Below are positions 1-24,119 of a DNA stretch of 64,000 bases, piece by piece. Origin of the DNA: Saccharofermentanales bacterium (GTDB lineage Bacteria > Bacillota > Clostridia > Saccharofermentanales > DTU023). The stretch is taken from assembly GCA_050951925.1 (NCBI GenBank), contig JBMNJZ010000001.1:915015-979014 (forward strand). The letters run 5' to 3'. The position numbers and the translations under genes are program-made. Positions within the stretch are counted from its first letter, which is position 1; each line of letters begins with the position of its first letter. The notes beneath the pieces are model-generated. The model was not told where the DNA came from. It made no database searches and saw only the letters and a list, made by a program, of their open reading frames with translations.

Positions 1-2
1 AA

Positions 3-827
3 AGAGAGGGCAGGTTCAGAGGCAAGAACTGCGCCTTGATTTTACCTGAGTTCAGTACATATTTCAGGTCGCTTGAGATGCCTCCGATCAGTGAAAAGCA
101 GCTGCGACTCAATCTCCCGTACGAATTCAGAGATTTCGTTGGCAATGAGAGCATAAACTATAATTATGATTACGCAGTTGAAGGCTATGTCACGGACGAG
201 GACGGCAAGGTAACGGCTGTCAGTTTGCTCGCGGCAGCCGCCTCGAAGATAACAATCAAGGAGTATGAGGACCTTCTTTACAGAGCAAGCTTCAGGCTCA
301 AGGTGGCACTGCCGAGAGAGATGGCTCTTCTCAATCTCGTCAGAAAGGCTATCGAAAGGGAAGCTTACGGCGACAGAGTCTCCGTAATAATCGATTTAGG
401 CTTCGCAAACACGAGGGTCTACATACTGCAAGGGGGGGATCTGAGGGCTGCCAAGACGATCGAGATGGGCTGCAGGGACGTGGACAGCGTAATCGCGGAT
501 CATTATAATATCGATGTTTATCTTGCTGCTTCGTACAGGGAGACCGACCATGAAGGGATACTTGAAAGCGATGTCTGCCGGGCGGTATACAACAGAATAT
601 CGCTGGAAGTGATGAAGGCTATAAACTTCTATAAATACGAAAATCAGCAGAGCGAATTCGAGGACTGCTTCATCTGCGGTGACTGCTCGGATACCGAAGC
701 TTTTGTAGACAATATGCTTGCATATGTGCGGCTGGACAAGGCGAATCTGGATGTGATTCTACCCAAAGAATGCAGGGGCCTGAGTGACGCTCCGCGCGCG
801 CTCATGTCCATAGGCGTTACTTTATAG
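3..827 (+). CDS. pilM: Type IV pilus assembly protein PilM-like (actin-like ATPase fold), 5' end outside the window
   Basis: The frame is open from base 3, with no stop upstream of the TTG at 36, so the gene is cut by the window edge. The layout is PilM-like (LPYEFRDFV segment, IIDLGFANTRVYI nucleotide-binding-type motif, C-terminal FICGDCS). It is directly followed by PilN/PilO-like genes. Confidence 0.7.
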   Translation, partial: REGRFRGKNCALILPEFSTYFRSLEMPPISEKQLRLNLPYEFRDFVGNESINYNYDYAVEGYVTDEDGKVTAVSLLAAAASKITIKEYEDLLYRASFRLKVALPREMALLNLVRKAIEREAYGDRVSVIIDLGFANTRVYILQGGDLRAAKTIEMGCRDVDSVIADHYNIDVYLAASYRETDHEGILESDVCRAVYNRISLEVMKAINFYKYENQQSEFEDCFICGDCSDTEAFVDNMLAYVRLDKANLDVILPKECRGLSDAPRALMSIGVTL

Positions 828-839
828 GAGAAGGACTTC

Positions 840-1487
840 ATGGGAAATAAGCCAAAAAAACATAAAGTCTCAAAACTTCCTTCAAAAAAGACCATGAACC
901 TCTATCAGATTGAGATTACCGATAATTCGTGGCAGAGGGTAATACCTTACGCGCTACTGATTATTGTTATTGTGGCTGCATTTGCTCAATTCGGTGTCTT
1001 TCAAAGAATATCGCAACTTAATAAGTTGAGCGAGCAGGTTTCTAAAGCTCAGATTCAGCTTGAGAAGCTCAATAAATCCATAGAGGACTATGATGACGTT
1101 AAGACCGAATATATCAGATATACCGACGATTACATGCTTGAGGAAGAAGGAAAGCTTGTTGACAGGATGAAAATCATCGGTCTGATAGGTGACAAGGTTT
1201 CCAACATAGGAGAAGTCAAGAGCTACGCAATAGCCGATAACACGGTTTCTCTCGAAGTAGTTGTCGATACGCTCGATGATGTTCGCAGGATAAGGAAGCA
1301 GCTTGACGAAGTAGATTGGGTCGGGAACATAACCGTCAACACCGCTACGAAGAGTATTTCTGCCGCAGGTGGGGGCGAGGTAGTCGCTTCGATCGTGTTT
1401 GATGTTATTTACCAGGGCGAGTCTGAGGAGCCGGTTGACGCTTCCGGCACTGCGGAAGCAGCGGACGGAGAGGGGGTTGATGACTGA
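840..1487 (+). CDS. PilN-like pilus assembly protein (bitopic, coiled-coil)
   Basis: 215 aa. It has a basic N-terminus, one TM helix (VIPYALLIIVIVAAFAQFGVF) and a coiled-coil (LNKLSEQVSKAQIQLEKLNKSIEDY). There is a GGAG-type RBS upstream. It sits between the pilM-like and pilO-like genes. Confidence 0.6.
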   Translation: MGNKPKKHKVSKLPSKKTMNLYQIEITDNSWQRVIPYALLIIVIVAAFAQFGVFQRISQLNKLSEQVSKAQIQLEKLNKSIEDYDDVKTEYIRYTDDYMLEEEGKLVDRMKIIGLIGDKVSNIGEVKSYAIADNTVSLEVVVDTLDDVRRIRKQLDEVDWVGNITVNTATKSISAAGGGEVVASIVFDVIYQGESEEPVDASGTAEAADGEGVDD

Positions 1488-2119
1488 TGAATCTGAAGAG
1501 AGAAGTTATGTCGCTTAAAGAGTTGATACTTCTGGGCATATTGATCATCCTCGCAGCATATTATTTCGTAGTGCATGGCCCGATTGAAAAACAGACGGCA
1601 GAGTACGAGAGTAAGCTTGCCGAGATTGATTTAGAACTGCAGATTGCGCAGCAAAAGGCTGTAGAGAAAATTAAGATGCAGGAGTCAATCGACGCCATAT
1701 TTGCCCGATATGACGGTAATCCGCCAATGATACCTGCATACAACAATATTAATTTTATTATGGGAGAGTTAAACGGTATTTTAGGCAATACTTATGATTA
1801 CAATTTATCATTTGGCGCGGAGACGGCGGATGAGAATAATATTAAGATTATTAGAAGACCGATAGCTATTTCTTTCTCGACTCAAAAATATAGTGACGCT
1901 GTAGCGAAAATTAAGACGATTAATGAGTCGGAAAATAAATATTTGATTCAAAATGTTTCTGTTTTTGATTCTGGTGCTAATAGCTCCGTCTTAACCAATC
2001 CGTTTGGCGATCCTGTTAATAGCACTAAAAACAGTGGCAGGTACAATATTGTAATGACCATGACAAGTTTCGAGTACAAGGCGGATGCGCAGGCACCGCA
2101 GGAGGACATATCACAATAA
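1487..2119 (+). CDS. PilO-like pilus assembly protein (bitopic, coiled-coil)
   Basis: 210 aa. Its start overlaps the upstream stop (ATGA). It has an N-terminal TM helix (LILLGILIILAAYYFVV) followed by a coiled-coil. The call rests on architecture and position only. Confidence 0.5.
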   Translation: MNLKREVMSLKELILLGILIILAAYYFVVHGPIEKQTAEYESKLAEIDLELQIAQQKAVEKIKMQESIDAIFARYDGNPPMIPAYNNINFIMGELNGILGNTYDYNLSFGAETADENNIKIIRRPIAISFSTQKYSDAVAKIKTINESENKYLIQNVSVFDSGANSSVLTNPFGDPVNSTKNSGRYNIVMTMTSFEYKADAQAPQEDISQ

Positions 2120-2187
2120 AGTACGAAATACTCTTGAATGCATAAAGATATAGAGGATTTTTGGTCGGGGAACAGTAAAAAATATCC

Positions 2188-2222
2188 AAAGCTTACCGCG
2201 GTTGGCAGCGGTAAGCTTTTTT
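2188..2222. terminator. Bidirectional Rho-independent terminator between the convergent pilO-like and pseudopilin genes
   Basis: A perfect 12-bp stem, aaagcttaccgc (2188-2199) / gcggtaagcttt (2208-2219), with an 8-nt loop, followed by a T-run. Confidence 0.75.
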
Positions 2223-2258
2223 AATGAGCTTTTTTAACAGCCTGAAATACGCATATTG

Positions 2259-2807
2259 CTATCCGTTGAGAATCTCAACCGCGAAATTCTCTTCGGAAAT
2301 AATAATTTGTTCATCTTGCGTCATAACCTGAATGCCGATCTTGAATACCATGAAATTTTGATTCGGTGGAGTTAAATCCCTTTCGGACGCAGTAGTAAAC
2401 TTGGCTTTTAAATCGTAAACATAGGTTTTTTTCGGAACCAAGTCATATTTCCCCTCCGGTGTACTCAGCGTTATGAATCCACTTTCAGCGGGATCACCGT
2501 TTTCATCCGTTATTGAGAAGCTGCAATTTTTAAGAGAATGATTCGTACTAAAAAACTTTAGATCACTCAGGTTTGTTCCTTCAATATTTTTGGCGTAGCG
2601 AAGCTCATTTTTGACCGCAGTAACGAGCGTAGCGCACAAAATCTGCCCTTCCGCCTCCCGGTTAGATTTGTTAAATGAGCGCACTCCGAGATCTATCGCT
2701 AAAGATATGATTCCGGTTACTAATATCAGGAGAACTACCGTAACCAGGAGCTCGATAAGGGTTACACCTTTATTATTTGATTTCTTAACGACATTACTTA
2801 TAGTCAT
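2259..2807 (-). CDS. Type IV pilin/pseudopilin with prepilin leader (Glu+5 present)
   Basis: From Met32 of the track ORF the protein reads MTISNVVKKSNNKG|VTLIELLVTVVLLILVTGIISLAI. That is a short basic leader, Gly-1, Glu at +5 and a hydrophobic helix, the class III signal. The ATG at 2807 overlaps the upstream gene's end by 14 nt. Confidence 0.8.
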   Translation of the reverse strand: MTISNVVKKSNNKGVTLIELLVTVVLLILVTGIISLAIDLGVRSFNKSNREAEGQILCATLVTAVKNELRYAKNIEGTNLSDLKFFSTNHSLKNCSFSITDENGDPAESGFITLSTPEGKYDLVPKKTYVYDLKAKFTTASERDLTPPNQNFMVFKIGIQVMTQDEQIIISEENFAVEILNG

Positions 2808-3117
2808 AAAAATAGTACCCCTCGGATTCATATACATTAAAATCGTACCCCGCGAATTCATCTGCCTCTGTAGAAATATCGAGACTTTCGATAACGGCAC
2901 CAGAGTATTCGACTGTAACTGTAACCTCTTCGGCTATGGGAGCTGTCCTGTCCATCATCGTAGAAATATCTTTTTCCTCAGCCTGTTTGTTGAGTTTAGC
3001 TGCGAGTGTAATAGCAGTAGGAAGCATAATCATTACAAGAACTATGATGAGCAGACTGACCAAAACTTCTATCAGGGTTTCTCCGCGTTTGTTTTTTAGT
3101 TTACTTTTTGTTTTCAT
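2794..3117 (-). CDS. Small type IV pilin/pseudopilin with prepilin leader (Glu+5 present)
   Basis: From Met13 of the track ORF the protein reads MKTKSKLKNKRG|ETLIEVLVSLLIIVLVMIML. A GGAGG RBS lies inside the end of the upstream gene, and the ATG at 3117 is 1 nt after the upstream TGA. 107 aa. Confidence 0.8.
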   Translation of the reverse strand: MKTKSKLKNKRGETLIEVLVSLLIIVLVMIMLPTAITLAAKLNKQAEEKDISTMMDRTAPIAEEVTVTVEYSGAVIESLDISTEADEFAGYDFNVYESEGYYFYDYK

Positions 3118-3118
3118 C

Positions 3119-3850
3119 TCAGCCTCCGCTCGTCTTATTCTTGGTGATAACAAAGTTGTCCCAGCTGATTGTATGAACCACCTTTTGGGTAACGGTTATG
3201 GTCTTAACATTTTTGTTTTCTGTCCGTTCTTTCATTTCGCTTGAAGATGTGACCGGATATGAGGTGGCTTTTAATAAATCCATAGTCATAACCGCTGATG
3301 GCGAAGCATCTTCAATGCCGAAAGTGGTGGTTATTCTCATTTTTTGAGGATTGAACACCATCTTAGCTTCTACGGTTGCTATCTCCGATAAAATGTCGTT
3401 GCAGGTTATAGTGATAGTTAGTTCTGTTTGCGAAGCAGGCGGGTCAATGATTGCTTTTGCCCAGGCATTAAGGACCGCTTGCGGTACTATATTTTTTGCT
3501 GCGATATCATTGTAAACAGCTGGGTCTAATGAAGCTTCGGTCGATGGTGGGCTCTCTGACACCAGCTCATCCCAGTTATCATCATATACTTTCTCAGTGG
3601 TAGTAATGAATGTTTGCTCAAAGGAGATACTATCACCCTCAAGCGCATTTTTGAACATCATAACCGCGGAGCTTACCGCGAGGTAATTTTGTTCCTCGTT
3701 CTGCGTGTTTTTTACACGACCTATGTTGGAAAACGCAGTATAAATCAGAACCGCCGAAATCATGAGGCAAAGAATCAGGGCGACCAAAGCGAACACAATG
3801 GTCGCGCCCTGCTTGGACTGTATTTTATTCTTTAGATTACTTGAATTCAT
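3119..3850 (-). CDS. Minor pseudopilin-like protein lacking Glu+5
   Basis: The N-terminus is MNSSNLKNKIQSKQG|ATIVFALVALILCLMISAVLIYTAF, a basic leader, Gly, then a hydrophobic helix with Phe at +5 instead of Glu. The ATG at 3850 lies inside the last codons of the giant upstream gene. Confidence 0.65.
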   Translation of the reverse strand: MNSSNLKNKIQSKQGATIVFALVALILCLMISAVLIYTAFSNIGRVKNTQNEEQNYLAVSSAVMMFKNALEGDSISFEQTFITTTEKVYDDNWDELVSESPPSTEASLDPAVYNDIAAKNIVPQAVLNAWAKAIIDPPASQTELTITITCNDILSEIATVEAKMVFNPQKMRITTTFGIEDASPSAVMTMDLLKATSYPVTSSSEMKERTENKNVKTITVTQKVVHTISWDNFVITKNKTSGG

Positions 3851-6800
3851 GTAATCTCTCCTGAAGGGAAGTATGGTACTTAAATAGCCATATTCCGCCG
3901 TCTTGGTTTTTTATAATATTCTTGTTAGAGTTATTAAGAATGAATTTATTATTGCTATTGTCAAACAAAATCCTCCAAAAACTTTGGAAAAACAGATTGT
4001 GCATATCGCTGTAGTATTTAGCCCCATAAAGCCCGGGCCCGGATGTTGCACCACAGAAAACAGCATTGGTATTAGAGCCACCTGTAGGTTTTTTTATGTA
4101 TGTCTCGTTATGAGTATTAGAAAGCTTAAGGTATTCCGTGCCTACGCCGTCTGGTACGTCGTTCGTAACATCCCATAGCATCGTATTTTCGCTCACAGGC
4201 GAGGCGAGGTGATAATCATCTCCACCTATGTGCTGAAGATATACTTGTGTCGTAGTAACCGGATTGTCAGACCCGGGCCCGAGTCCGGGCGGCGACTCTC
4301 CGGTCATGCAATAGTATTCCGTGTCGCTTTCTCCTACCACCCTTGCGACAACAAGGTATTTTTCTTCCGTATTGGTAGTCGTGGGAAGCGGATCATCGTA
4401 AGAGGCTCCGCTGACAAATTTCAGATTATATGGTATCTTCCACCTCGCATATAGTTCTATATCCTGTTCCGGATTGATATTAAATTTACCATCCTCTGTA
4501 ATTCCTGCTATATCGCCGTCATCTGTGTAAATCGTTCCGTTAGTATTCAATAGTTTTTTGAGATCTTCACCATCGTAAACATACCAGCCTGCAAAGCTTG
4601 AGCTTGAGTCTAAAAGTGAACCCTTATCACTCATCTCAATATTCAAAGCAGAGAATGATTTATCCGTATTGGTGGATATGAGAGCCGGATCTACACCTTG
4701 ATCGCCGTTATTGTAGAGATAATGGTTATTTATATATTCTTCATTTTCCGTTGCCGTTCCGTCTAAGTTATAATGCTTCAAAATAAGCTTTCCGGTGCAC
4801 CAAAGCGCACGTAAATTGAGTACATTGCTGTCAAAAGTCCTTATATTGCCTTCGCTGTCAATATTAGTCTTATCACGCGCTTCTATTTTCAGTGCCTGAA
4901 CTTTAAAATCAGCATTTCCCGCATTTTGCGCTGTAGCTTCCAGATAGAACGGCGAAGGATCTAATGTGGCCATGGCTCTATAAATGTCTGAACTAAAGCC
5001 AACGGCATTCTCCTCCGGATTGAATTCGAATGTGAATGTCCAATTTCCACTCACCGTCATTTCGTTAGTATTAATCAAGTTATTCCATTGATCCCTCAAT
5101 ATGAGGTTCCAATTTACTGTATCTCCACGTTCCAGCCTCTGCCGTTCTCCCGGGTGCCAAACCTCAGGATTAATCGGCTCTGCCGACAAATTAACTATAG
5201 CGGTGACATCAACTTTTAATGTTGCCATATAATATTTGCCGCTATCTGAATATCTAAAGAGGATTATCGTAGGTGTTTCTGTCTTATCGATACCCGTTAC
5301 GGTAAGTTTGGAAATAATACCCTCGGTTTCGCTTGCGGATATTTCAACCTTGTCGTTGATACTTACGGACGGGTTATCGGCGAAATTAACCCATTCACCA
5401 TTGTCTTTTCTGATTTCAAAATTTAACACTAAAATATCTGTGTAACCGTCGCCGTCAAAAAATTGCACTTCCGTTTCATCGACATAATCGTCAATATCTT
5501 CGCCTGTAACCGCATCTGTATGATAAGAAATTAAATCCAACCCCATTTCGGACTCAGTCAATTCCAAGCGCCTGTTCTTAGGCCATTCGCCGTAGTGGAC
5601 ATATTTTTTGCCGCCCGGATATTCTTGCGTAATTACTGTGGCAAACGGATAGTCCTCACCTTCGAGCGAAGCTTCACCGCAGGGGAAGCTGTAGTTAGCA
5701 GTGACTTTGTGATAAGAATTCTGTGGGGAACCGCTATTCAAGTCATCGCAGAATTGCTGCAGTGACATATCGTCGTATGATTTCGAATTAATGCCGTTAT
5801 CTACCCAACCGGATTCAGCCGATGCTATTATCAGCTGGCCGGTTAGATAATTGTTAGCATAATAATAGCAGTTATTTAACTCGCCGCCTAACTGTTTTGG
5901 CAGTAAATTGTTCTCGTTATAGCATGCGTCACCGCCTATTACGGCAACCTTTACATTGCCTTCAGGCAGGGGTAAATCCATATAAGAATAGCAATTATAA
6001 TATTTCGGGCTTATAAATGCACTCGCCTCCTCAGCATGCATATTTACGGCACTGCATGTAAAGGCTGATGAGGCGATGCCGCTGATATAAATATTCAGTT
6101 GATCGGACTCGGGATAGATAAGAGAATGATTAACAATAACTCTGCCGCCGGAATAACAATTATTTATCTTGGTTTGATTTGTACCCGCGATACCTCCTAC
6201 AGTTATGTTATCTTTATAGCCTGAACCAACACTTGTGCCCCTGTTCCTATCTGTATTGATTCCAATTGTAGTTACGGCAGAGCATCTGTTTATATTTGTT
6301 CTGAGAACGCCTGCCAAGCCACCTATGGTTGCTTCGCCGCAAGAAACCGGCTGATTGCTTTCATCACTAATTTCATAGCCGGCAACCGCACAGTTTTCGA
6401 TCTTGCCATTGTAGTTATCATAGTCATCATCATATTCGTTTGCCATCCCCACTAAGGTGCCGATGGCATAATAGCCCGCAGGGCTTTCTGCAGGACGCTT
6501 AATTACCGCAGGAGTGTTATTTGAGTCCCTGATGAGTACGACATTTTTTATCGTAGAGCTTACAGTTAATCCGAAAACTCCTACCGAATAACAACTTGAT
6601 GTAATAGAAAGGTTCTTGATTTTATAACTTTGACCGTCAAAAGTCCCGCCAAACCAGGCAAAAAACGGTAAGCGGTAGCTCTTTCCCGATGTTTCTCCAA
6701 GGGCAGCGATCGGGGAATAGCTTGTTCTTCTGATGCACTCTATATCATAATCCTGAATGAAGTTCTGTCTTGCCCTTGATTGCCCGAAATCATTCCAGAC

Positions 6801-9800
6801 TTCCGGTTCCGCTTCCGCGTTATAAGTCCAACCTGAAGCATCACTATATTCTATCTGGCTTCCTTTCTTTGTCGCGTGCAAATAAGGGAAATAATTGTAA
6901 TTTGTTCTGCTAATCCGCTGATCACAATTCCTATTAACGCTGTTCCAGTTGATAAACTGCAGTTGGTCGAGTGACCTGATTCTGTATTTATTATTCCCCG
7001 TTCCCGGCTCGTATTGAGGAGCGGGTTGAGTACCGGCGTTATTCCATGTGTTCCAACCTGTGAGCTTTATTGATTTGGCGAAGAAAGGACAGAAAGTATA
7101 GTTTAGCGGATCGTCCTCCCCGGCTGTTAAAGTCACGGTAGCATTCTGCACATTCCCCGTCATGAACATATAGTTATCTTTATACAGGCGGCCATTAGCA
7201 TCAACGCCATTAGTTTTATATGAGGTAGCAAGATTAGTTTCATCACAAGTGGTATAGCAATAGAACTTATAGCCTGGATAGTTTTCATTAAAATATGAGT
7301 CGGCGGAAGCGTTTGTGGTTACAGGGTTGGTTGCAGATACATTCACATTCAGCCATGATACATCTAAGGCGTATGTTTCTGTGCCGCCGCCTTTTTTGGC
7401 AACATAATACCCATAGCCGTATTCTTTGACGATTCCTCCGGTGTTATGCGCCGTGCTTGTGGTGTTATGGTAAACCGCCTCGTATTCTCCGCCTTCGCCA
7501 TTTTTTCTGCCAACCATATAGATCTTATATCCCTGACCCTGAGCAGAGCCTCCAGTAACTTTTTCCCAGTAGAACAGACCGGCCTTACCGTATTCAGGTT
7601 CCTCTTCCGATATCGGCGGCAACCAATCGCCATAATGAGGGAGACCTTCTATTGATACATACGGGTATATGACAAGAAGCTCAAGGTTTTCTTTTTGATT
7701 GTTTTGATTATATGGATAGGTGTCAAACTCGTTTTCGTCGTCCGAAAAAGGACTTCCCAATAAAGTGGCAGCAGCTGCATTAGATGTGAATTCATATTTT
7801 TGAGAATCTTCTAGCTTATTATCTTCGGATCCGAAATAGTAGACATTCTGTACCGTTGTTGCGTCCGGCGCTGTACTGTATATGTGAGTCGCCTGTGACT
7901 CGGAACAGTTAAAGAGCGAATATGAATTGGTTATACTTGAAATGTTGTTGGGAACAAAGCCCGCTGCCGAATCAATTATGCCTTCGGCTAAACCGGTTTT
8001 CATTATTCCGAAACCTGCGGAGTATGAGCCTGAAATAGAGGATCCGGCAGTAAGTGCACCTGCCAGTCCGCCTATCTTGGAAGTCGATGCGCCTCCGATA
8101 AGGTATGAGTCAGCATACGAATTCTGTATTATAGCACTGCCGTTTGTTTTGCTGCCTATCAGACCGCCAATCGAGCCCGTTCCTTCGATGATCGTTGCGG
8201 CAAAGCTGTTTTGAATGGTTAACGTGGAGTCTGTCGAACTGCTGCCTACGAACCCGCCGACATTGGCAGTGCCTTTCAATAAGATATTGTCCGCATAGGT
8301 GCTTTCGGATGCAAAGTATTCTTTCTCAATATAAAGTCGGCAGTCTTTTATTGTAAGGTCTGAGGTGGTTCTTCCCGCCAGGCCGCCTACGTCCGTGCCG
8401 CCTTCTATCTTTTCGTTAACCAATGTAACGCCGGAAATATTAGTTCCTGCAAAACTCCCAAACAACCCCGCCGGTTCGGAGCTGTTGCCGATATGCATAT
8501 TAATAATTTTGAACGAGTCGGCAGCAGGCGGGGCAATATAGCCCGAATATGTCATTAAAGACGAGTTGTTGATCGGCGTGAATGTTTTATCTCCGTAAAT
8601 TGACTTCCAGAGGAACGGCTTTTCGAGAGACCAATTATCATCAGAAACATCGTTAAAGTCTATATCCGAAATCTGTTTTGCGGAGGTAATGGCATTCGCC
8701 GGCAAGCGTGAAGTTGATATGTTAAGATTCTGCAGATGTCTGCCATACGCTATATTGGCTTCTGTCGGGTTCTCCGGATTTAATGACGCGAATAAACTGT
8801 TTGTAGTTCTTTCTATCGGGCCTACGTCCGGAACACTGTTGTCGCTGCTTGAGACAGTAAATGATAGTTCTAAGTCTTCGCCCGGAATGAGAGCGCCTGT
8901 CCTTGGCTCTGCATAATCCGGTTCCCATGTTATAGCGCCGAAAGTGTCTTTGAAGTATTGACTTTGATTGGTTTCGGGGTCGACGTCAAGCTTATCAAGT
9001 ATAACGGACGCAGAAAATACTTTAGTTACTGGATCCGGGGTGACGGTCTGCAGGAGAGTGACTGTATTACCGCTTGTTTTTCCCTTAACTGCAAGCTTAA
9101 ATTCCAGATCACTTATATCAGAATCAGAAGGAAGAATCGCAGTCATATTCGCTTGCAAAATATCGGCATTGATGACATTCAGCGAGGCGTTGATCATATT
9201 GCCGCTTACATCCGCGGGCATATTCGCTTTGCCGCCGTAGTAGCCTATTTTATTATTCCCTTTCAGGCTATGCCTGGGATCCTTGAATCTTATCGAAGAA
9301 TCCCCGTTTAGCGTTTCATCGTTATCAATGTAATAATTGCCGGAAGATCTTTTTTCCGAGTAAAATGCCGAATAGACATATCCGGTAACAGGGTCAAATT
9401 CAATGACCCAATTATCATCACGTACATCCCCATCAATGCTTCCTGGAGGAAAAATAAAATCGACCAGGTCACTTGGAGTTGAATTACCAGGATTGTCTTT
9501 GTCGTGATAAAAATATTTTAAGTTACCAGGATTTACCGCAGCAGTGTCTTCTCCCCAATCGGCCGGTTTGACGTCGACTTCTCCAAGTTCTGTGGCCGTT
9601 AATAAGCTGTCTATTCCTCCCGATGCTTTTAACTCCTTAATTCTGTTCTGCGCGCTGACATACATGCTCTGGGCTATGTTGTCCAGCTTTGTTTGATTGA
9701 TACGGTCAACCAAGCCTTGAATGCCAATAAATGCGACACCGAGAAGAATCACTACGATCGCAACAACGATGAGTGTTTGAATCAGCGTTAAACCTTTTTT

Positions 9801-9833
9801 ATTTTTTAACTGGCTGTCAATTCTTGTTTTCAC
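3837..9833 (-). CDS. Giant (1998 aa) modular protein with a type IV prepilin N-terminus, two GLUG-like repeat blocks and a Listeria-Bacteroides-type repeat
   Basis: GTG start at 9833 with GGAGG 7 nt upstream. The N-terminus is MKTRIDSQLKNKKG|LTLIQTLIVVAIVVILLGVAFIGI (Gln at +5). The ORF is uninterrupted for 5994 nt. There are GG-hydrophobic-x-G repeats at aa ~440-650 and ~1060-1330, and FAGWYVYDGE...DIELYARW at aa 1747-1798. Confidence 0.85.
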   Translation of the reverse strand: MKTRIDSQLKNKKGLTLIQTLIVVAIVVILLGVAFIGIQGLVDRINQTKLDNIAQSMYVSAQNRIKELKASGGIDSLLTATELGEVDVKPADWGEDTAAVNPGNLKYFYHDKDNPGNSTPSDLVDFIFPPGSIDGDVRDDNWVIEFDPVTGYVYSAFYSEKRSSGNYYIDNDETLNGDSSIRFKDPRHSLKGNNKIGYYGGKANMPADVSGNMINASLNVINADILQANMTAILPSDSDISDLEFKLAVKGKTSGNTVTLLQTVTPDPVTKVFSASVILDKLDVDPETNQSQYFKDTFGAITWEPDYAEPRTGALIPGEDLELSFTVSSSDNSVPDVGPIERTTNSLFASLNPENPTEANIAYGRHLQNLNISTSRLPANAITSAKQISDIDFNDVSDDNWSLEKPFLWKSIYGDKTFTPINNSSLMTYSGYIAPPAADSFKIINMHIGNSSEPAGLFGSFAGTNISGVTLVNEKIEGGTDVGGLAGRTTSDLTIKDCRLYIEKEYFASESTYADNILLKGTANVGGFVGSSSTDSTLTIQNSFAATIIEGTGSIGGLIGSKTNGSAIIQNSYADSYLIGGASTSKIGGLAGALTAGSSISGSYSAGFGIMKTGLAEGIIDSAAGFVPNNISSITNSYSLFNCSESQATHIYSTAPDATTVQNVYYFGSEDNKLEDSQKYEFTSNAAAATLLGSPFSDDENEFDTYPYNQNNQKENLELLVIYPYVSIEGLPHYGDWLPPISEEEPEYGKAGLFYWEKVTGGSAQGQGYKIYMVGRKNGEGGEYEAVYHNTTSTAHNTGGIVKEYGYGYYVAKKGGGTETYALDVSWLNVNVSATNPVTTNASADSYFNENYPGYKFYCYTTCDETNLATSYKTNGVDANGRLYKDNYMFMTGNVQNATVTLTAGEDDPLNYTFCPFFAKSIKLTGWNTWNNAGTQPAPQYEPGTGNNKYRIRSLDQLQFINWNSVNRNCDQRISRTNYNYFPYLHATKKGSQIEYSDASGWTYNAEAEPEVWNDFGQSRARQNFIQDYDIECIRRTSYSPIAALGETSGKSYRLPFFAWFGGTFDGQSYKIKNLSITSSCYSVGVFGLTVSSTIKNVVLIRDSNNTPAVIKRPAESPAGYYAIGTLVGMANEYDDDYDNYNGKIENCAVAGYEISDESNQPVSCGEATIGGLAGVLRTNINRCSAVTTIGINTDRNRGTSVGSGYKDNITVGGIAGTNQTKINNCYSGGRVIVNHSLIYPESDQLNIYISGIASSAFTCSAVNMHAEEASAFISPKYYNCYSYMDLPLPEGNVKVAVIGGDACYNENNLLPKQLGGELNNCYYYANNYLTGQLIIASAESGWVDNGINSKSYDDMSLQQFCDDLNSGSPQNSYHKVTANYSFPCGEASLEGEDYPFATVITQEYPGGKKYVHYGEWPKNRRLELTESEMGLDLISYHTDAVTGEDIDDYVDETEVQFFDGDGYTDILVLNFEIRKDNGEWVNFADNPSVSINDKVEISASETEGIISKLTVTGIDKTETPTIILFRYSDSGKYYMATLKVDVTAIVNLSAEPINPEVWHPGERQRLERGDTVNWNLILRDQWNNLINTNEMTVSGNWTFTFEFNPEENAVGFSSDIYRAMATLDPSPFYLEATAQNAGNADFKVQALKIEARDKTNIDSEGNIRTFDSNVLNLRALWCTGKLILKHYNLDGTATENEEYINNHYLYNNGDQGVDPALISTNTDKSFSALNIEMSDKGSLLDSSSSFAGWYVYDGEDLKKLLNTNGTIYTDDGDIAGITEDGKFNINPEQDIELYARWKIPYNLKFVSGASYDDPLPTTTNTEEKYLVVARVVGESDTEYYCMTGESPPGLGPGSDNPVTTTQVYLQHIGGDDYHLASPVSENTMLWDVTNDVPDGVGTEYLKLSNTHNETYIKKPTGGSNTNAVFCGATSGPGLYGAKYYSDMHNLFFQSFWRILFDNSNNKFILNNSNKNIIKNQDGGIWLFKYHTSLQERLHEFK

Positions 9834-9976
9834 GGTGTACCTCCGCTATTCAAACGGCATTGACGGTTTAGTTCACTTGGCCTAGTTATAAAACTATTAT
9901 AATTATAATTGTTTGCATTATAAAATATTGCAACCGGTCTGTCATGTACGAATCCCTATTGCTCAATGTTTGGGCA

Positions 9977-10109
9977 CTTGAGTTTTGCGCCGTTGCGCTT
10001 CTCTAGGTCTGCCAGCAGTATTTAAGTGCGAGCCTCTAAAATAGATACACTCATCAATGCTGGATCTTATGTCCATGCTAGCATAGAAACGGCGCAAATT
10101 AAACTCAAG
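9977..10109. repeat. 18-bp inverted-repeat pair flanking a 93-bp segment, upstream of the pilin operon
   Basis: The left arm cttgagttttgcgccgtt (9977-9994) is the exact reverse complement of aacggcgcaa (10088-10097) plus aactcaag (10102-10109). The right arm carries a 4-nt insertion (atta). Confidence 0.85.
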
Positions 10110-10277
10110 GGTTCCCTCTCAAAGCAGGAACGACATATTTGGTATAAAAATGGTACAAAACAGCCGAAAGCGGGTAAGAAATCTAAAAGCAAAACCCGCT
10201 GAAATATCTATGTTCCAACGGGCTCGGACTTGGCATCGTACAATAAAATGAATACAATCCACTTGAAAGTATGTCGT

Positions 10278-10354
10278 GGGTGCATTTGGGTGTATTTCTG
10301 AAAACCGGGTGCACCGCTCAGTTTAGGGTGCATTCATTGTTGCAACAAGGTGCA
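10278..10354 (+). repeat. Array of five direct GGTGCA-type repeats plus a 12-bp palindrome
   Basis: GGGTGCA occurs at 10278, 10307 and 10326, GGGTGTA at 10288 and AGGTGCA at 10348. The spacings are 10, 19, 19 and 22 bp. The third copy is part of the palindrome GGTGCACC (10308-10315). ttgttgcaacaa (10337-10348) is a perfect palindrome. Confidence 0.8.
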
Positions 10355-10381
10355 TGGGCAGTATATGCCGATTCTGCTTCT

Positions 10382-11704
10382 TTATAGCAGATTGTCAATC
10401 TCCTCAAGCAGGAACGGGATGATTCCCACATAACTGATGCCATTTTCATCTGTGTGCATTTTTGCATTACCGCCTGTTACTACAAGTTTTCTAAATGAAT
10501 CCCCGCTTTTTAGGAGAGGAAGAATTTCTTGCTGATGTTTTTCCGCATCATGGATGCTGAAAGCGGACTGTATGTAGACCTTTTGGTTTCCCCTATTTAC
10601 TACAAAATCAATCTCGTGCCATCGTTCGGGGAGCAGCCTGCCAGCCACGGTTTTTGTAAAACGTACGGAACCCACATCTACCGCAAATCCACGAAGCACC
10701 AATTCATTATGCAAAATATTTTCCATCAAGTGAGTCTCTTCAATCTGTCGAAAATTCAGCCTGGCGTTTCGTAAGCCAACATCTTCCGCATAGTATTTTA
10801 CAGGAGAATTAAAATATGTCTTCCCTTTCACATCGTAGCGCCTGACTTTGGTAAAAAGAAACGCATCCTCTATCGCATCCAGGTATTTCTTTACGGTTTT
10901 ATCTGTTGTGCCCGCACGGCGAACTGAGTTTAAGGTGTTTGCCAGCTTTGATGGGTTAGTCAGGCTGCCAACATTGGAAGCCAGCACATCCACCAGGTCA
11001 TTCACATATGAGTCCGCCACCCGGTATCTTTCCGCAATATCAGCCACATATACTCGCTCAAACAAACTGGACAAGTACGCCTCTCTCTCCCTTGGGTTCT
11101 TTTCCAGCACGGCAAGCGGCATGCCGCCATACACCAGGTATTCTTCCCAGGCGTCCGCCTTTTCCATATCAGAAACGGAATAAAATTCTGCAAAGCTGAA
11201 AGGGTGCAGGCGTATTTCAATGCCTCTGTCACGGAAGTTGGTGGCAACGTCCTTGGACAGCATCTTGGAGTTGCTTCCGGTCACATAAATGTCCAAATTG
11301 CGTCGGGTCATCAAATCGCTGAGGATGTCGTAGAAGGTGGTGTATAGCAGTTCCCGATCTTCTTCAGGCACCTGACTTTCATCCACATCTAAGCGCTTGA
11401 CCTTGTAAGAGAGCTGAATTTCATCAATGAACAAATAAAACTGTTTGTTTCTACTTTCAATTTTTTCAACAACATACTGATGCAGGGTATTAGGGTTGCG
11501 CATGGCTTCATACTGTTTCTGGTCCAGCGCAATCTCAATGATCTGGCTGTCATCTATGCCTTGCTGATGAAGGTATTCTTTGAAAAGTCGAAACAGCAAA
11601 AATGACTTTCCGCAACGGCGTATCCCAGTAATGATTTTAATTCGACTATTGTGCATCATACTAATGAGACGCTTCAAAGGTCGCTCTCGATCAATGACTT
11701 TCAT
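10382..11704 (-). CDS. AAA+ ATPase of the AAA_14/DUF4143 type (function unknown)
   Basis: 440 aa. It has a Walker A GIRRCGKS near the N-terminus and a Walker B-like LFIDEIQ. The C-terminal half is typical of the widespread 'ATP-binding protein' family with a DUF4143 domain. There is an AAGGAG RBS upstream of the ATG. Confidence 0.75.
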   Translation of the reverse strand: MKVIDRERPLKRLISMMHNSRIKIITGIRRCGKSFLLFRLFKEYLHQQGIDDSQIIEIALDQKQYEAMRNPNTLHQYVVEKIESRNKQFYLFIDEIQLSYKVKRLDVDESQVPEEDRELLYTTFYDILSDLMTRRNLDIYVTGSNSKMLSKDVATNFRDRGIEIRLHPFSFAEFYSVSDMEKADAWEEYLVYGGMPLAVLEKNPREREAYLSSLFERVYVADIAERYRVADSYVNDLVDVLASNVGSLTNPSKLANTLNSVRRAGTTDKTVKKYLDAIEDAFLFTKVRRYDVKGKTYFNSPVKYYAEDVGLRNARLNFRQIEETHLMENILHNELVLRGFAVDVGSVRFTKTVAGRLLPERWHEIDFVVNRGNQKVYIQSAFSIHDAEKHQQEILPLLKSGDSFRKLVVTGGNAKMHTDENGISYVGIIPFLLEEIDNLL

Positions 11705-11718
11705 AAGGACTCCTTATG

Positions 11719-11821
11719 ACGGATTTCATCGATAGTCGATAAAATCCGTACTTAAGGTATAATTTTACACCATTGTTATTTTCTGCGCAAACCGGATTTC
11801 ATCGAGACTCGACGAAATCCG
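11719..11821 (-). repeat. Two related ~30-nt perfect or near-perfect hairpins/palindromes in the ATPase leader
   Basis: Copy 1 is at 11719-11749 (acggatttcatcga tag tcgataaaatccgt). Copy 2 is at 11793-11821 (cggatttcatcgag a ctcgacgaaatccg). The single mismatch in each becomes a G-U wobble only when read on the minus strand. Confidence 0.7.
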
Positions 11822-12099
11822 TCTTGATGACATAATAAAACCTGAAATGAAGATATCGGAGTAAGCATTTCCGACAACCACACTTTCTACTGAAAAAACC
11901 TGCTTAAAACGAGAAAAAATCAACCAGAAACAGAACCGACCCTGTGTTAGCTTGCTCACATTCAGATTATCGAACAATTCGTAATCGAAAAGTGCAAAAT
12001 TATAAAGCTGCAAGATGTTGAGACTACCGGTTTTCATGGTTTCAACATGAATGAGGGTGCCCAATTCACTTAATAAAGTGTTTTGAGACACCCCCGACT

Positions 12100-12176
12100 T
12101 GGTGGGTGGTAGTGGAGTCGAACCACCGACCCCCTGCATGTCACGCAGGTACTCTAACCAGCTGAGCTAACCACCC
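12100..12176 (-). tRNA. tRNA-Val (anticodon GAC), CCA encoded
   Basis: The reverse complement folds by hand as a cloverleaf: acceptor GGGTGGT/ACCACCC, D-arm GCTC..GAGT, anticodon stem CCTGC/GCAGG with loop GTGACAT, T-arm GGTGG TTCGACT CCACT, and 3' ACCA. Confidence 0.9.
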
Positions 12177-13243: not shown

Positions 13244-15073
13244 ATGAAAGCTCAAGATCCTAAACACAATAGTCCCAGAAAGAAACTGGCGACATATTAT
13301 GGCATAGCCATACTTATCATAATTTTCTTAAATTACGTTGTTTTCCCGCTGTTGTTTTATCCCAGGCCGAGACAGGTGGCTTACAGCCAATTTATGCGGG
13401 ATGTAGATCGCGGTATTGTCACGCAAGTTGAAGTTTCCGATACGGAGATTCAATATGCTACGCGAGAGGGCGAACAGGTCAGTTATTTTAAAACGGGCAT
13501 TATGAATGATCCTGATCTGATCGCTAATTTAGAAGCAAAAAGTGTTGAGTTCGGTGCCGTTATTCCGGAGCGCCCCAATACCTTTTTATCGTTGCTGCTT
13601 ACTTGGGGCTTGCCCATTTTATTCTTTGTGATGATGGGCCGTTTCGTGTCGCGTTCGCTGCGGGGGAGAATGACCGCCAGCGGTATGAGTTTCAGCGGTC
13701 ATAATGCGGCGCGCATTTATGTTCCGGACGAAGATAAAAAAGATTTTTCGGATGTTGCCGGTCAGGACGAGGCCAAAGAATCCTTAAAAGAGATTATTGA
13801 TTTCCTGGAGGACCCGGAAAAGTATAAAAATATTGGCGCCAGATGTCCGAAAGGCGTTTTGCTTGTAGGACCGCCGGGTACGGGAAAGACCTTGATTGCC
13901 AAAGCTGTTGCCGGCGAGGCGGATGTCCCGTTCTTTTCGATTTCCGGTTCGGAATTTGTCGAGATGTTCGTTGGACGGGGCGCGGCGAAAGTGCGTGAGC
14001 TGTTCGAACAAGCTTCAAAAAAAGCGCCCTGTATTGTCTTTATCGACGAGATCGATACCATCGGCAAAAAACGCGATAGCCAGCTGGCGACCAATGATGA
14101 GCGCGAACAAACATTGAATCAGCTTTTAACGGAGATGGATGGCTTTGACAGCAATAAGGGCGTGATCATTCTGGCGGCGACTAACCGTCCGGAGATACTC
14201 GACCCCGCTTTACTGCGCCCCGGTCGCTTTGACCGCCTGGTGCGCGTTGAATTGCCTGATCTGCAAGATCGCGTTGCGCTTATGAAAGTGCATCTGCGCA
14301 AGGTAAAACATGCGGAAGATCTGGACTATTCTCTGATAGCCCGCATGACAGCCGGTGCTTCCGGCGCCGATATGGCGAATATTGCAAATGAGGCGGCATT
14401 GCGTGCCGTGCGCATGGGTCGTGAGCTTGTGACAACGGCTGATCTTGAGGAGTCAATCGAAACAGTCATCGCCGGGCAACAAAAGAAAAATGCCATCTTA
14501 TCGGATCAGGAAAAAGAGATTGTTGCCTATCATGAGATCGGTCATGCGTTAGTGGCGGCAAATCAGACAGGCGCCGCCCCTGTCCAGAAAATTACCATCA
14601 TTCCCAGGACATCGGGAGCCTTGGGCTATACCATGCAGGTTGAGGAAGAAGAAAAGTCGTTGCTGAGTAAGCGTGACGCGCTGAATCGGCTCGAGGTTCT
14701 CTGTGGCGGCAGAGCGGCGGAAGAGATTGTCTTTAACGAAATTACAACGGGCGCCGCCAATGATATTGAAAAAGTGACTCAGTTGGCTCGTCAAATGGTT
14801 ACGCAATACGGTATGTCTGAGCGCTTTGGCATGATGGCGCTTGAGGCGTCAGGATCCCAGTATTTAGGCGGGGAGAGCAGACTATCCTGCTCTTCGGAAA
14901 CAGCTAAAGAGATTGATAAGGAAGTTTTGGCCTTGATTCAGAAGAGCCATGATAATGCGCGGGATATTCTGACGGCCAATCGGGACAAGCTTGATCAATT
15001 AGCCGCGCATCTGATCGAAAAGGAAACGATCACCGGCGCGGAATTCATGGAGATTTTAACGGGGGAAGAATAG
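13244..15073 (+). CDS. ftsH: ATP-dependent zinc metalloprotease FtsH
   Basis: It has an N-terminal TM pair, the AAA Walker A GPPGTGKT, Walker B IVFIDEID, an SRH region and the zinc motif HEIGHA. Confidence 0.95.
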
Positions 15074-15305
15074 TACCCGGCGCCGAATGCGACTGTTTTG
15101 CTTCCGCCCGCCATATGGTATCAGATAGCAGTAAAAGCTTAAGTGGCGGTGCCTGCCGAGAACCGGCGGCGCCGTCGCTTAAATCTTTGTCTCCCTTGTC
15201 GTTGGTAAAAGATCACTGTCTGCCGTACTTTGACAGTTATGATAACCCTCTTCTATAATCATTTAATGTGGAGACGTAGTGTGAGGCTTAATGTGATGGT
15301 GAGAC

Positions 15306-18300
15306 ATGGCTGAAGCTTTGCATTTTAATCGCGCACTGGGGATAGACATCGGTTCTACGACTGTTAAAGTATCCCTCACTTGTGGCGGGCAGATTGTATT
15401 TGAGCGCTACGAGCGCCATCTTTCCCATATCCAAGATAAAACAATTGAGCTATTGGAGCAGGCGTCTGATCTGCTGGCGGCGGCTCCTTTTACGGTGGCT
15501 TTGTCCGGGTCGGCTGGATTGGGGCTGTCCGAAATATCCGGCCTGCCCTTTGTGCAAGAGGTTTATGCGACGGGAGAAATCGTAAAGCAACTGGAGCCGG
15601 ACACCGGCGCGGTGATTGAGCTCGGCGGCGAAGATGCCAAGGTGATCTTTTTTGCCGGCGGCACCGATGCCCGAATGAACGGGAGCTGTGCCGGCGGCAC
15701 GGGAGCTTTCATCGACCAGATGGCCGCTTTGCTTGACATGACAATTCCTGAGCTGGATGAGGCATCTTTTCGAGCGGAGAGAATCTATCCGATCGCTTCC
15801 AGATGCGGTGTATTCGCCAAGACGGATGTGCAAGCGCTGTTCAATCAGGGCGCCGGCAAAGAGGATGTGGCGGCTTCGATCTATCAGGCTGTGGTGAATC
15901 AGACTATCGTCGGTCTGGCTCAGGGCAGGCAGCTGCAGGGCAAATTGCTTTTTCTGGGCGGCCCGCTGTACTACTGTGCCGGTCTGCGCCGGCGTTTTCG
16001 TGAGACGCTGCAACGGGATGAAACGGACTGCATCTGCCCGGACTATGCCTTATTCGCGGTAGCGCGGGGAGCCGCATATCTGAGCCGGAATCTAGAGCCA
16101 TATACTTATGACAGATTGATTGAGAGCATCAGGCGCACGGATGAGAAATCTCATTATGAGCGCGGTTTTGTGGAGCCTCTGTTTACAGATGCGGAAGAAT
16201 ACCGGAACTTCAGGGAGCGGCATGAGCAAGATAATGTCGTTGAGCGCAGCATCGAAGATTATACCGGCCGGGCTTGGCTGGGAATTGACAGCGGCAGCAC
16301 GACGACAAAGCTGGTTCTGATCTCGGAGGATCAGGAGCTTCTATACAGTTATTATTGTGTCAATCGCGGTTCGCCGGTCGAGATTGTACTGGAGCAGCTG
16401 CGGGAGATCCGCCGTCTCTGCGGCGACCGGATTGAAATCTGCGGGGCCGCCAGTACGGGTTATGGCGAAGCTCTGATGCAGCATGCTTTTCATACGGATG
16501 CCGGAGTGGTGGAGACTATGGCCCATTATACGGCGGCGCGGTTTTTCCAGCCCGAGGTCGATTTTATCCTGGATATCGGCGGCCAGGACATCAAATGCTT
16601 CTATATTAAGAACGGCGCAATTGATTCGATCATGCTCAATGAGGCTTGTTCATCGGGCTGCGGTTCTTTCCTGGAGACTTTCGCCCATGCGATGGGATAT
16701 GAGGCGGATGAGTTTGCTAGGCTGGGCATCAAGGCGAAGGCTCCGGTAGATCTGGGTTCGCGCTGTACTGTGTTTATGAATTCCTCAATCAAACAGGCGC
16801 AAAGAGAAGGGGCCTCCCTGGCGGATATTGCGGCCGGACTTTCAATCAGCGTGGTCAAGAATGCTCTGTACAAGGTGATCCGCGCCGGCTCGCCGGACGA
16901 ACTGGGCGAGCATATTGTGGTCCAGGGCGGCACTTTGCTGAATGACGCGGTTCTGCGGGCACTGGAACTTGAATTGGGCCGCGATGTGATCCGGCCTGAG
17001 ATTGCCGGGCTGATGGGCGCTTTCGGCGCTGCTCTTGTCGCTAGGCAGTTCGGGTCGAGCAATTTGCTGTCAGAGGCGGAGCTGGCTGAGTTCAGACATG
17101 AATCCTCGGTGCGTATTTGCCGCGGCTGCACCAATCACTGCACATTGACAGTCAATCGCTTCGCCGACGGCGGTAGATATATCTCGGGCAATCAGTGTCA
17201 GAAGCCGCTGGGACTCGATGCTTGTGAGGAGCTGCCCAATCTGTACCACTGGAAGCGGGAGAGGCTCCTGGCCCTGGCTGCCGGCTCGGGTGCCGGGACG
17301 GGTGCCGGGATGGATGCCGGGGCGGATGCAAAGCGCCTTCGTCCCAAAAGAAGCGGGAAACAGGAGGGGGAGCTGGCTGTGACAACAGATCGGGCGCTGG
17401 GGCGGATGTCGGAGCAGATGCCGGAACAGAGGCCGGGGCGGATGGCGGAGCAGAGGCGGGAGAGTCCGCGCGGCCGGATCGGTCTGCCCACAACGCTGTC
17501 CACCTATGAGCTGGCGCCGCTCTGGCAGGCGTTGTTTACGGAGCTGGGCTACGAGGTAGTTTTCTCGCCGCTCTCGACCAGGCGTATTTATGAGCAAGGG
17601 CAGCTATCGATCCCGTCGGATACGATTTGTTATCCGGCGAAGGTTATGCATGGCCATATTGAGCTATTGCTGGAGCAGGGATTGGAGCTGCTGTTTTATC
17701 CCAGCCTGACCTATAATATTGACGAGGGCGGCAGCAGCAACCATTTTAACTGCCCGGTTGTGGCCTATTACGGCGAGGTTTTGCAGGGCAATCTGGATGC
17801 TCTGAAATCCGTGAAATTTCTTTACCCTTATCTGAATATCAACAGCGCCGGACAGCTGACCCGCACGCTGTACCAAGCGTTGCGCGAGGTCGATCCGACT
17901 ATAGCCAGGAGCGAAGTCAGACGGGCGGTCAGGGCCGGTTATGCCGCTCTGTCAGCCGAGCGCGCTGCGGTGCGCCGGGCAGGCGAGGAGGCCGTGAGAT
18001 ACGCGCGCCGGCATCATAAGCGGATCATGATTTTGGCCGGTCGGCCTTATCATGTCGATCCCGAGATCTGTCACGGCATTGACCGGTTGGCGTCAGCGCT
18101 GGGTTTTGTGATTGTGACCGAAGATTCCGTGGCGCACCTGGCTGAATTGCCGCAGTTGCAGATCCTCAACCAGTGGACTTATCATTCGCGTCTCTATCAG
18201 GCGGCGCAGTTTGCCTGTGATAACGCCGATGTCGAGCTGGTGCAGCTGGTATCCTTCGGCTGCGGCATTGATGCGATCACAAGTGATGAAGTGAAGCGGA

Positions 18301-18551: not shown

Positions 18552-18577
18552 CTGTCAGTTACAGGGGAAATAAGAAA

Positions 18578-20680: not shown

Positions 20681-21012
20681 TCTCTGACCTCTCAGGCTGC
20701 TTGCGGTGTTTTACGGATTTGCAGCGGCTTGGGGCGCGCATTATCCGAGCCCAGCAGGTTGTCAACAGTACTTTCAGCCGGATTTGCAGCGGCGGATTCT
20801 GCATCTCGCAGTAGAAAAATTCAGGTTATTCTTCTTGCTTAGGCAGATAAACTATTGTATCATGACAGCCGTAAGGCGACTAGATTTTCAGATTTAGATC
20901 CGTTCAAAACTGAAAGCTTGCTATTCAATGATTTTAGTTGGAGATTTTAGTGGGAAATGCTTTTCACATATCGATTGCATATGTGTTATTTTGCGGCAAT
21001 AGGAAATAACGA

Positions 21013-22020: not shown

Positions 22021-22084
22021 TGGTTTATTTTTCAGGCTTCAGGTTTAATAGCTTAGCACGAATATGAGGAGAGTGTCCCGGTAG

Positions 22085-24118: not shown

Positions 24119-24119
24119 G

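Follow-up and report, generated by a model that had tools for sequence, protein, structure and literature searches.

The modular pilins defined by Raynaud et al. 2021 comprise more than 1,200 proteins in 264 architectures, of which an 860-residue protein was singled out as the most extreme multi-domain case (PMC8179133). Dataset S1 of that study lists six proteins under 'IPR012902 - IPR011493' (N_methyl + GLUG), an architecture that was read as a predicted M26 peptidase (PMC8179133). Modular pilins of Streptococcus sanguinis form a tip complex, as described by Shahin et al. 2023, who note that monoderms lack PilY1, an adhesin of very large size found at the tip (PMC9934059). We analyzed a 64,000-nucleotide stretch of DNA from a Saccharofermentanales bacterium (GenBank assembly GCA_050951925.1, contig JBMNJZ010000001.1, positions 915,015 to 979,014; hereafter the window, in which coordinates are counted unless a homologous locus is named). 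The gene of interest, a 1998-residue open reading frame (ORF) on the minus strand at 3837..9833, probably codes for a minor pilin of the modular kind and of giant size, belonging to a Clostridial type IV pilus (T4P); the prepilin peptidase PilD would process it, and it would sit at the pilus tip, most likely as an adhesin. The protein falls within the published definition of modular pilins (PMC8179133), with a Glug module (Pfam, 25.8 bits) grafted to a pilin module. A giant modular pilin of a type IV system had already been proposed in the first-pass annotation of the window, and support for this idea is provided by a family-wide class III signal, homology of the alpha1 helix to pilins, an AlphaFold2 model, a complete pilus machinery and conserved synteny.

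The translation of the giant ORF opens with MKTRIDSQLKNKKG|LTLIQTLIVVAIVVILLGVAFIGI, in which a basic 14-residue leader with Gly at position -1 precedes a hydrophobic helix, just as the initial description of a class III signal had it. PilD is predicted to cleave the leader peptide (residues 1-14, MKTRIDSQLKNKKG; 9792..9833, minus strand) after Gly14, a residue that is invariant across the family alignments. The segment LTLIQTLIVVAIVVILLGVAFIGI is the sole hydrophobic, transmembrane-like stretch among the 1998 residues, and scanning the whole protein revealed no LPXTG-like sorting signal. Nearly all of the listed full-length homologues likewise start with a leader followed by G|(F/Y/L)(T/S)(L/M)xE, and an exhaustive profile search found Glu at mature position +5 in 124 of the 137 family representatives with a readable motif and Gln in one. 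Moreover, the Pfam N_methyl model is matched at E<=0.01 in 13 of 16 relatives, and TIGR02532 (IV_pilin_GFxxxE) scores above its curated cut-off in 6 of the 8 relatives tested. When a profile of 15 full-length members was searched against the PDB sequence set, only pilins were matched (geopilin, 8.8e-5 and 1.9e-4). Alignment of the N-terminal module with the pilin families encoded at the same loci using hhalign gave a probability of 98.4% (E 9e-15) for the major pilin, 97.5% over 140 columns for the 182-residue pilin family, 96% for the 107-residue family and 87% for the 243-residue family. On the basis of these sequence comparisons, the class III signal is a trait of the giant-pilin family and alpha1 is homologous to that of pilins.

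Several properties of the window's own protein nevertheless weigh against a pilin assignment. The codon CAA (9777..9779, minus) places Gln at mature position +5 (residue 19), where canonical pilins have Glu, a feature that the first-pass annotation overlooked; Leu at mature position +1 is also non-canonical. Pfam gives no match at all when the whole protein is searched, the N_methyl model (PF07963) reaches only 15.4 bits against a cut-off of 21.2 bits (E 0.014) when the first 250 residues are searched alone, and the best NCBIfam match is a weak one to 'prepilin peptidase-dependent protein' (E 0.03). The N_methyl score lies under its cut-off because of Gln5 and Leu1: the relatives match, and the three that miss are exactly the Gln5 sequences, which together explain the sub-threshold score of the giant. 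Recognition by prepilin profiles, which had been suggested as a check on the first proposal, is seen for the relatives and fails for the protein itself, a failure that taken alone would speak against the proposal on its own terms. Gln5 is fixed in the subclade of the window (at least 10 distinct 90% clusters), whereas sister proteins that are about 60% identical keep Glu. Minor pilins of the K type are also naturally devoid of Glu5.

Structure prediction gave a similarly mixed outcome. The AlphaFold2 model of residues 1-210 (predicted local distance difference test score 84.2, predicted template modeling score 0.76, alignment of 24 sequences) contains a continuous helix at residues 17-71 (55 residues), followed by strands at 106-110, 141-147, 152-159 and 197-200 and short helices. 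In the model, a 55-residue alpha1 with a small sheet is the pattern of a pilin and is unlike that of a 20-residue signal anchor. Using this model and the homology of alpha1 to the locus pilins, we place the predicted pilin module of the mature protein at residues 15-205 (9219..9791, minus); within it, the family alignments show conservation of both the head and the alpha1C segment (RQTELD..AQNR). A long alpha1 and a four-strand head, in line with the helix and beta-sheet head that the first proposal asked about, are present in the prediction, but Foldseek finds no solved pilin that resembles them, the best match of the 1-210 model in the PDB having an E-value of 1.1. Other observations point in the same unfavorable direction. 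A profile of the head alone shows no similarity to the heads of the other locus pilins in hhalign, and all specific matches of the pilin module to the H, I and J models are below cut-off and mostly cover alpha1 only. Because neither Foldseek nor the head-only profile returned anything, the secondary-structure pattern in the AlphaFold2 model is the sole basis for assigning a pilin-head fold.

The genetic setting is that of a T4P locus. At the left edge of the window, on the plus strand, lie pilM, cut at its 5' end by the window edge (1..827; PilM_2 and TIGR01175 matches, with a full gene of 329 residues on locus L001), a pilN-like gene of 215 residues (840..1487), which has no significant family match, follows pilM and is kept in 46 of 77 related loci, and a pilO-like gene of 210 residues (1487..2119), which has a weak T2SSM match and is kept in 48 of the 77. 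The operon headed by the giant gene converges on these three genes, as had been noted at the outset. Beyond the left window edge, the same contig encodes a 213-residue prepilin peptidase PilD (A24_N_bact + Peptidase_A24), a 121-residue major pilin (KKG|FTLMEM), pilC (T2SSF), pilT and pilB (MshEN + T2SSE). The prepilin peptidase and the extension ATPase, either of which could have been missing from the genome, therefore adjoin the locus. Synteny was examined by collecting relatives of the N-terminal 460 residues in 190 species-representative genomes; 80 loci, mostly from Oscillospiraceae, Lachnospiraceae and Saccharofermentanales, were kept, and 77 of them gave hits. Cultured carriers among these loci include Dysosmobacter segnis, Oscillibacter sp. 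MSJ-31, Vescimonas sanitatis, Hominenteromicrobium mulieris and a Blautia. The gene order pilB-pilT-pilC-major pilin-pilD-pilM-pilN-pilO-giant-243-107-182 is found on one strand in most of the 77 loci, and because this order holds so widely, the giant gene is a fixed component of the Clostridial T4P locus, in which it heads the minor-pilin set.

Two further observations concern these loci. Comparison of window positions 1-10000 with L007, L015-L035 and other loci shows the minor-pilin block to be inverted relative to pilB..pilO in the lineage of the window and also in loci L006, L011 and L012; in most Oscillospiraceae and Lachnospiraceae loci it is co-directional. Four loci (L016, L020, L049 and L054) derive from bins ('cleanbin' metagenome-assembled genomes) that carry the names Bacteroides stercoris, Moraxellaceae, Flexilinea and Bacteroidaceae, and are flanked by Clostridia-type pil genes; their odd labels probably reflect binning contamination and not horizontal transfer.

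The giant gene and the three genes that follow it, encoding proteins of 243, 107 and 182 residues, had been described as a tight four-gene operon with the giant first, and the spacing agrees: the giant ORF and the 243-residue gene overlap by 14 nt, a 1-nt gap separates the 243- and 107-residue genes, and the 107- and 182-residue genes overlap by 14 nt. All three downstream genes open with class III-type signals. The 243-residue minor pilin (3119..3850, minus; QG|ATIVF...) is K-like, with a weak NCBIfam GspK match (E 7e-4). The 107-residue minor pilin (2794..3117, minus; RG|ETLIE...) is I-like in size and matches N_methyl (E 1.4e-6), with ComGE, PilV and GspI matches below cut-off, and the 182-residue minor pilin (2259..2807, minus; KG|VTLIE...) matches N_methyl with an E-value of 1.7e-5. 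PDB searches with the 182- and 243-residue partners returned nothing useful. Among homologues recovered from the related loci, Glu5 is present in 0 of 29 for the 243-residue protein (M, F or L in 26 of the 29), 41 of 44 for the 107-residue protein, 42 of 45 for the 182-residue protein and 54 of 55 for the major pilin. In the HIJK tip and priming complex, K is recognized by its bulk and its missing Glu5, and the missing residue is taken to indicate that no further pilin is stacked on top of it (PMC9934059). We regard the 243-residue protein as K-like because its homologues never have Glu5 and because of the weak GspK match. Judged by sequence, the four genes look like a divergent HIJK-type set of which one member has grown enormous, although no operon pilin of the four passes the curated threshold set for any H, I, J or K model. 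The organism thus has two minor pilins without Glu5 among its four (the giant and the 243-residue K-like protein), a situation that current tip-complex models do not obviously accommodate.

Signals for expression surround the operon. The giant gene has a GTG start at 9833, as first reported, and a stop codon at 3837-3839; it is preceded by a ribosome-binding site read from the sequence (GGAGG, 9840..9844, minus; 6-nt spacer to the GTG). A promoter-like site (ATGACA-17-TATAAT, 9917..9945, minus; 11/12 matches in a consensus scan) lies upstream of the operon, and a terminator-like hairpin with a 12-bp stem and a T run (2188..2219, minus) lies between the convergent operons, so that these two pattern matches (9945..9917 and 2219..2188) bracket the four genes. 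The hairpin falls within the 140-bp gap between the pilO-like gene and the 182-residue pilin gene, and could serve as a terminator of both operons.

The size of the giant ORF is not an artefact of assembly. It is the longest of the window, as originally stated with the same coordinates, and the runner-up in the ORF list has 1081 residues. The very same protein of 1998 residues is predicted on at least 10 contigs of several assemblies, among them NCBI GCA_002049705.1 and four metagenome assemblies from ENA; its neighbours are identical in every case, and 15 full-length homologues (56-86% identity) are collinear with it from the first residue to the last. A misassembled or chimeric ORF, the artefact of which the first-pass annotation had warned, is rejected on both counts. 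The NCBI copies are annotated 'type II secretion system protein [Saccharofermentanales bacterium]', a name implying that annotation pipelines already detect the prepilin-like N-terminus.

A search with the 196-position profile of the pilin module, carried out exhaustively, returned 262 representatives (50% clusters) at E<=1e-30, so that the family counts at least 262 clusters at 50% identity. The top 150 representatives have a median length of 2,333 residues; 108 are of at least 1,500 residues, 12 of at least 3,000, and the longest has 5,147 (P0201). Complete ORFs in the genome loci reach 3,602 residues (L056), one incomplete ORF exceeds 3,790 (L061), and those of L052 and L063 have about 3,000. 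The first proposal had presented some 2,000 residues as an extreme case, which is correct relative to ordinary pilins but not within this family, where the window protein is unremarkable, somewhat on the small side, and not a one-off. In members of 3,100-3,400 residues Pfam recognizes only N_methyl, Glug and Flg_new, leaving thousands of residues per protein unannotated. Some short members are true variants of 650-1,300 residues. In others the giant gene is interrupted, as in L024 (6055-12228, a single in-frame stop) and in L082 (6329-13212, a frameshift), and these interruptions could be pseudogenes, phase-variable switches or sequencing errors.

Variation along the protein was assessed within a gut population of homologues (P0021-P0120) whose first 49 residues are identical. 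Mean pairwise identity per 100 residues is 0.90-0.94 over the pilin module but only 0.67-0.83 over the greater part of the body, and a conserved island (identity 0.91-0.92) is seen at about residues 900-1100 of these giants. A conserved pilin module joined to a variable body is what one would expect if the body were a surface module that is exposed and diversifying, and the mosaic variation suggests that the exposed parts undergo diversifying selection or recombination.

The body of the window protein begins with a predicted immunoglobulin (Ig)-like beta-sandwich at residues 215-345 (8799..9191, minus), placed by the strands of a 460-residue AlphaFold2 model and by Foldseek. The matches of the 1-460 model in the PDB are to Ig-like domains (glycoside hydrolase family 2 enzymes, factor XIII and Fabs, E ~1e-4 to 1e-2); all come from residues 215-345 and are uninformative for the pilin head. 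GLUG module 1 follows (residues ~355-745, ending ...PHYGDW; 7599..8771, minus). Pfam Glug (PF07581) is matched there in four stretches within residues 430-760 (E 1.2e-5; 25.8 bits, above the cut-off of 20.5 bits), so that the GLUG motif named in the first-pass annotation is present. A middle region without Pfam or PDB match (residues 746-940; 7014..7598, minus) separates this module from the GLUG-like module 2 (residues 941-1420, ending ...VHYGEW; 5574..7013, minus), for which the Pfam Glug match is weak (E 0.043 in residues 1080-1500). GGxxG motifs occur at 483, 526, 556 and 588 in module 1 and at 1171 and 1213 in module 2. The two modules, whose closing motifs are similar, align in hhalign over 36 columns only (E 0.002, probability 14%), and BLAST found no internal repeats within the protein. 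The C-terminal region, presumed to be the distal end (residues 1421-1998; 3840..5573, minus), has no significant Pfam, Flg_new or PDB match; its last residues are conserved among close homologues, and a homologue search with residues 1420-1998 gave two fragments only and is uninformative. Three single-sequence searches and one family profile identified no PDB sequence relatives of the body, nothing beyond the N-terminal helix being matched. A Listeria-Bacteroides repeat (Flg_new, PF09479) had also been anticipated, and this expectation has to be given up for the window protein: Pfam segment scans detect none, and a hidden Markov model built from the repeats of its relatives scores -4.1 bits. 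The repeat is, however, present in distant members of the family. In the literature GLUG is a surface-protein motif whose function is unknown; a part in adhesion is considered possible, and Flg_new frequently accompanies it (PMC9723798). It also occurs on sortase-anchored proteins (PMC3617157).

We infer the following sequence of events for a giant modular minor pilin. In accord with established pilin biology, the protein would be inserted into the membrane co-translationally via its single N-terminal helix (alpha1N), and the remaining ~1,950 residues would fold outside. The locus-encoded A24 prepilin peptidase PilD would then cleave after Gly14. The HIJK and PilABC tip complexes suggest by analogy that the giant, the 243-residue K-like pilin and the 107- and 182-residue pilins may form a priming complex on the PilC/PilMNO platform. 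PilB would polymerize the 121-residue major pilin beneath, which would carry the complex and the giant body to the pilus tip, and PilT would retract the filament. At the tip the body, with its Ig-like domain, two GLUG-type modules and C-terminal region, would most likely act as an adhesin, a speculative monoderm counterpart of PilY1 fused to a pilin. The generalization of this scheme, that in Clostridia (Oscillospiraceae, Lachnospiraceae and Saccharofermentanales) a largely uncharacterized 200-550-kDa GLUG body, covalently fused to one core minor pilin and variable within populations in its exposed parts, replaces a separate PilY1 and is carried through the wall on a retractile pilus tip, a solution unlike that of all studied systems, strikes us as quite possible while falling a little short of probable.

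Passage of a body of more than 200 kDa across a Gram-positive wall on a pilus tip is hard to envisage and speaks against tip location. It also lends some appeal to a different explanation, in which the giant resembles a pilin but remains an anchored surface protein outside any polymer: its prepilin-type N-terminus, cleaved or not, would serve only as a membrane anchor, and its body would stay at the cell surface or on a very short pseudopilus stub. Relatives of up to 5,147 residues are likewise hard to reconcile with passage through peptidoglycan, the window lineage with its Gln5 lacks the charge through which subunits normally make contact, and the pilin head lacks fold-level confirmation by Foldseek. 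A mere anchor, however, would not need Glu5, which is kept in 124 of 137 representatives; nor does anchoring alone fit with the conservation of alpha1C (RQTELD..AQNR) and the head, with the constant position of the giant ahead of three minor pilins and beside pilMNO, or with a locus that encodes PilT, a retraction ATPase such as real pili typically have. We therefore consider an unpolymerized anchor rather unlikely.

The function of the body might be that of a pilus-borne or pilin-anchored enzyme, either an M26-type peptidase or a polysaccharide-active beta-helix, instead of an adhesin. This possibility takes its cue from the reading of the N_methyl + GLUG architecture by Raynaud et al., from a weak Peptidase_M26_N match (E 9.6e-4) in one of the 15 close homologues, 11 of which match Glug, and from a weak pectate-lyase-like match (E 0.027, below cut-off) in the last 259 residues of the giant. 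The M26_N model (PF05342), however, describes an N-terminal region and not the catalytic domain, and the pectate-lyase match is far under threshold. An HExxH or HxxEH motif is absent throughout the giant, and Pfam detects no catalytic domain and no Peptidase_M26_C in it or in the 15 homologues. M26 peptidase identity is rejected given the missing HExxH motif and M26_C match, and an enzymatic role in general seems improbable.

An ordinary Sec signal-anchored adhesin with a chance resemblance to prepilins and no functional link to the pilus genes might account for the failure of the giant alone in curated prepilin models and for its non-canonical +1 and +5 residues, but is strongly disfavoured, to the point of being hardly credible, by the family-wide class III signal, the homology of alpha1 to pilins of the same loci, the continuous 55-residue helix in the AlphaFold2 model, the T4P synteny in most of the 77 loci and the translational coupling of the giant to three genes for bona fide prepilins.

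Immediately upstream of the pilin operon the window encodes an AAA_14/DUF4143 ATPase of 440 residues (10382-11704, minus) and a 124-residue ORF without family match (11765-12139, minus), both of which also flank the operon on other contigs that carry the identical giant. The G+C content is 0.41-0.45 over the pilus locus and its flank (window 1-12000) and 0.50-0.58 in the neighbouring block at 14000-26000, which contains FtsH, a BcrAD_BadFG-type activase and MreB.

Modular pilins are the current explanation for the acquisition of new functions by simple type IV filaments, and the giant family extends their size from 860 to 2,000-5,000 residues. The principle is already established, and to a T4P specialist pilins of 2,000-5,000 residues would be notable. 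If the body is indeed carried at the tip as a pilin fusion, these proteins would be the largest known pilus subunits, and would make it possible to study, in a tractable model, the way in which monoderms assemble bulky cargo on a type 4 filament and export the two together. The family is common in Clostridia of the gut and of anaerobic digesters, and its occurrence in the cultured genera Dysosmobacter, Vescimonas, Oscillibacter, Blautia and Hominenteromicrobium makes giant pilins experimentally approachable. Assembly and wall passage of a tip of more than 200 kDa, a substitute for PilY1 in monoderms, the ligands of the almost unstudied GLUG modules and the attachment targets of abundant gut anaerobes all become testable. 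In addition, the database-derived reading of the N_methyl + GLUG architecture as an M26 peptidase is corrected. Our search of the literature on giant or large pilins, and on GLUG combined with pilins, found no study of this family. The N_methyl + GLUG combination has been catalogued; the size of these proteins, their conservation across the T4P loci of Clostridia, the breadth of the family and the lack of a peptidase site appear to be undescribed.

The Dataset S1 entries share with the giant the same two signatures in the same order, and very probably represent this family or a part of it. There, however, they were counted (six) and read as M26 peptidases, whereas the giant family comprises at least 262 clusters and the giant has no peptidase motif. 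The closest described proteins are PilB (von Willebrand factor A module) and PilC (lectin module) of S. sanguinis, which, like the giant, have a class III signal, a small pilin module, a C-terminal effector graft and a monoderm host. Their genes too lie together with those of further minor pilins, among which one is without Glu5, and a tip location and adhesive role have been proposed for them (PMC8179133, PMC9934059). Their graft is a single module, in contrast to the ~1,800 residues of the giant and up to ~5,000 in its relatives. Sequence similarity between the two is not seen beyond alpha1, and the GLUG, Ig-like and unassigned regions of the giant have no solved relatives.

At the level of the operon, the HIJK sets (GspH/I/J/K; FimU-PilV-PilW-PilX), by which type IV filaments are primed and capped, likewise consist of four co-transcribed minor pilins beside assembly genes, with a bulky member lacking Glu5, corresponding to the 243-residue protein with its weak GspK match, and a member of ~105 residues that the 107-residue protein, I-like in size, recalls. 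The giant operon departs from them in its order, which is giant-K-I-(H/J) and not H-I-J-K, in having one member of more than 10 times the usual size, in having two members without Glu5 in the window lineage, and in that no curated H/I/J/K cut-off is reached.

With PilY1/PilC of diderm type IVa pili the giant, as proposed here, would share the character of a very large tip adhesin presented by a minor-pilin complex, and the modular effector region, which in PilY1 is N-terminal. PilY1, however, is not a pilin and is held non-covalently via a C-terminal beta-propeller, whereas the giant is a covalent pilin fusion in which no segment matches a PilY1/PilC beta-propeller in Pfam at E<=10. PilY1 has moreover been described as absent from monoderms (PMC9934059), and the host of the giant is a monoderm. 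CofB/TcpB of type IVb pili, ComZ of Thermus and KilN4 of the Myxococcus Kil/Tad system (PMC12075869) also combine a pilin module with extra domains lacking signatures and have been proposed to act at the tip. They belong to different pilus classes, homology between them and the giant is not detected, and published descriptions, which mention one or two extra domains, suggest a size far below that of the ~1,800-residue body of the giant.

Finally, GLUG surface proteins such as the N-terminal region of the M26 IgA1 protease and the sortase-anchored 'GLUG domain proteins' share with the giant PF07581, a surface location and a presumed role in adhesion, and often carry Flg_new, as do distant relatives of the giant. 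They are held by sortase, membrane, choline-binding or other anchors, whereas the giant has a prepilin N-terminus and is encoded in a T4P locus. The kind of object is known, and the giant is an extreme modular pilin, not a new category.

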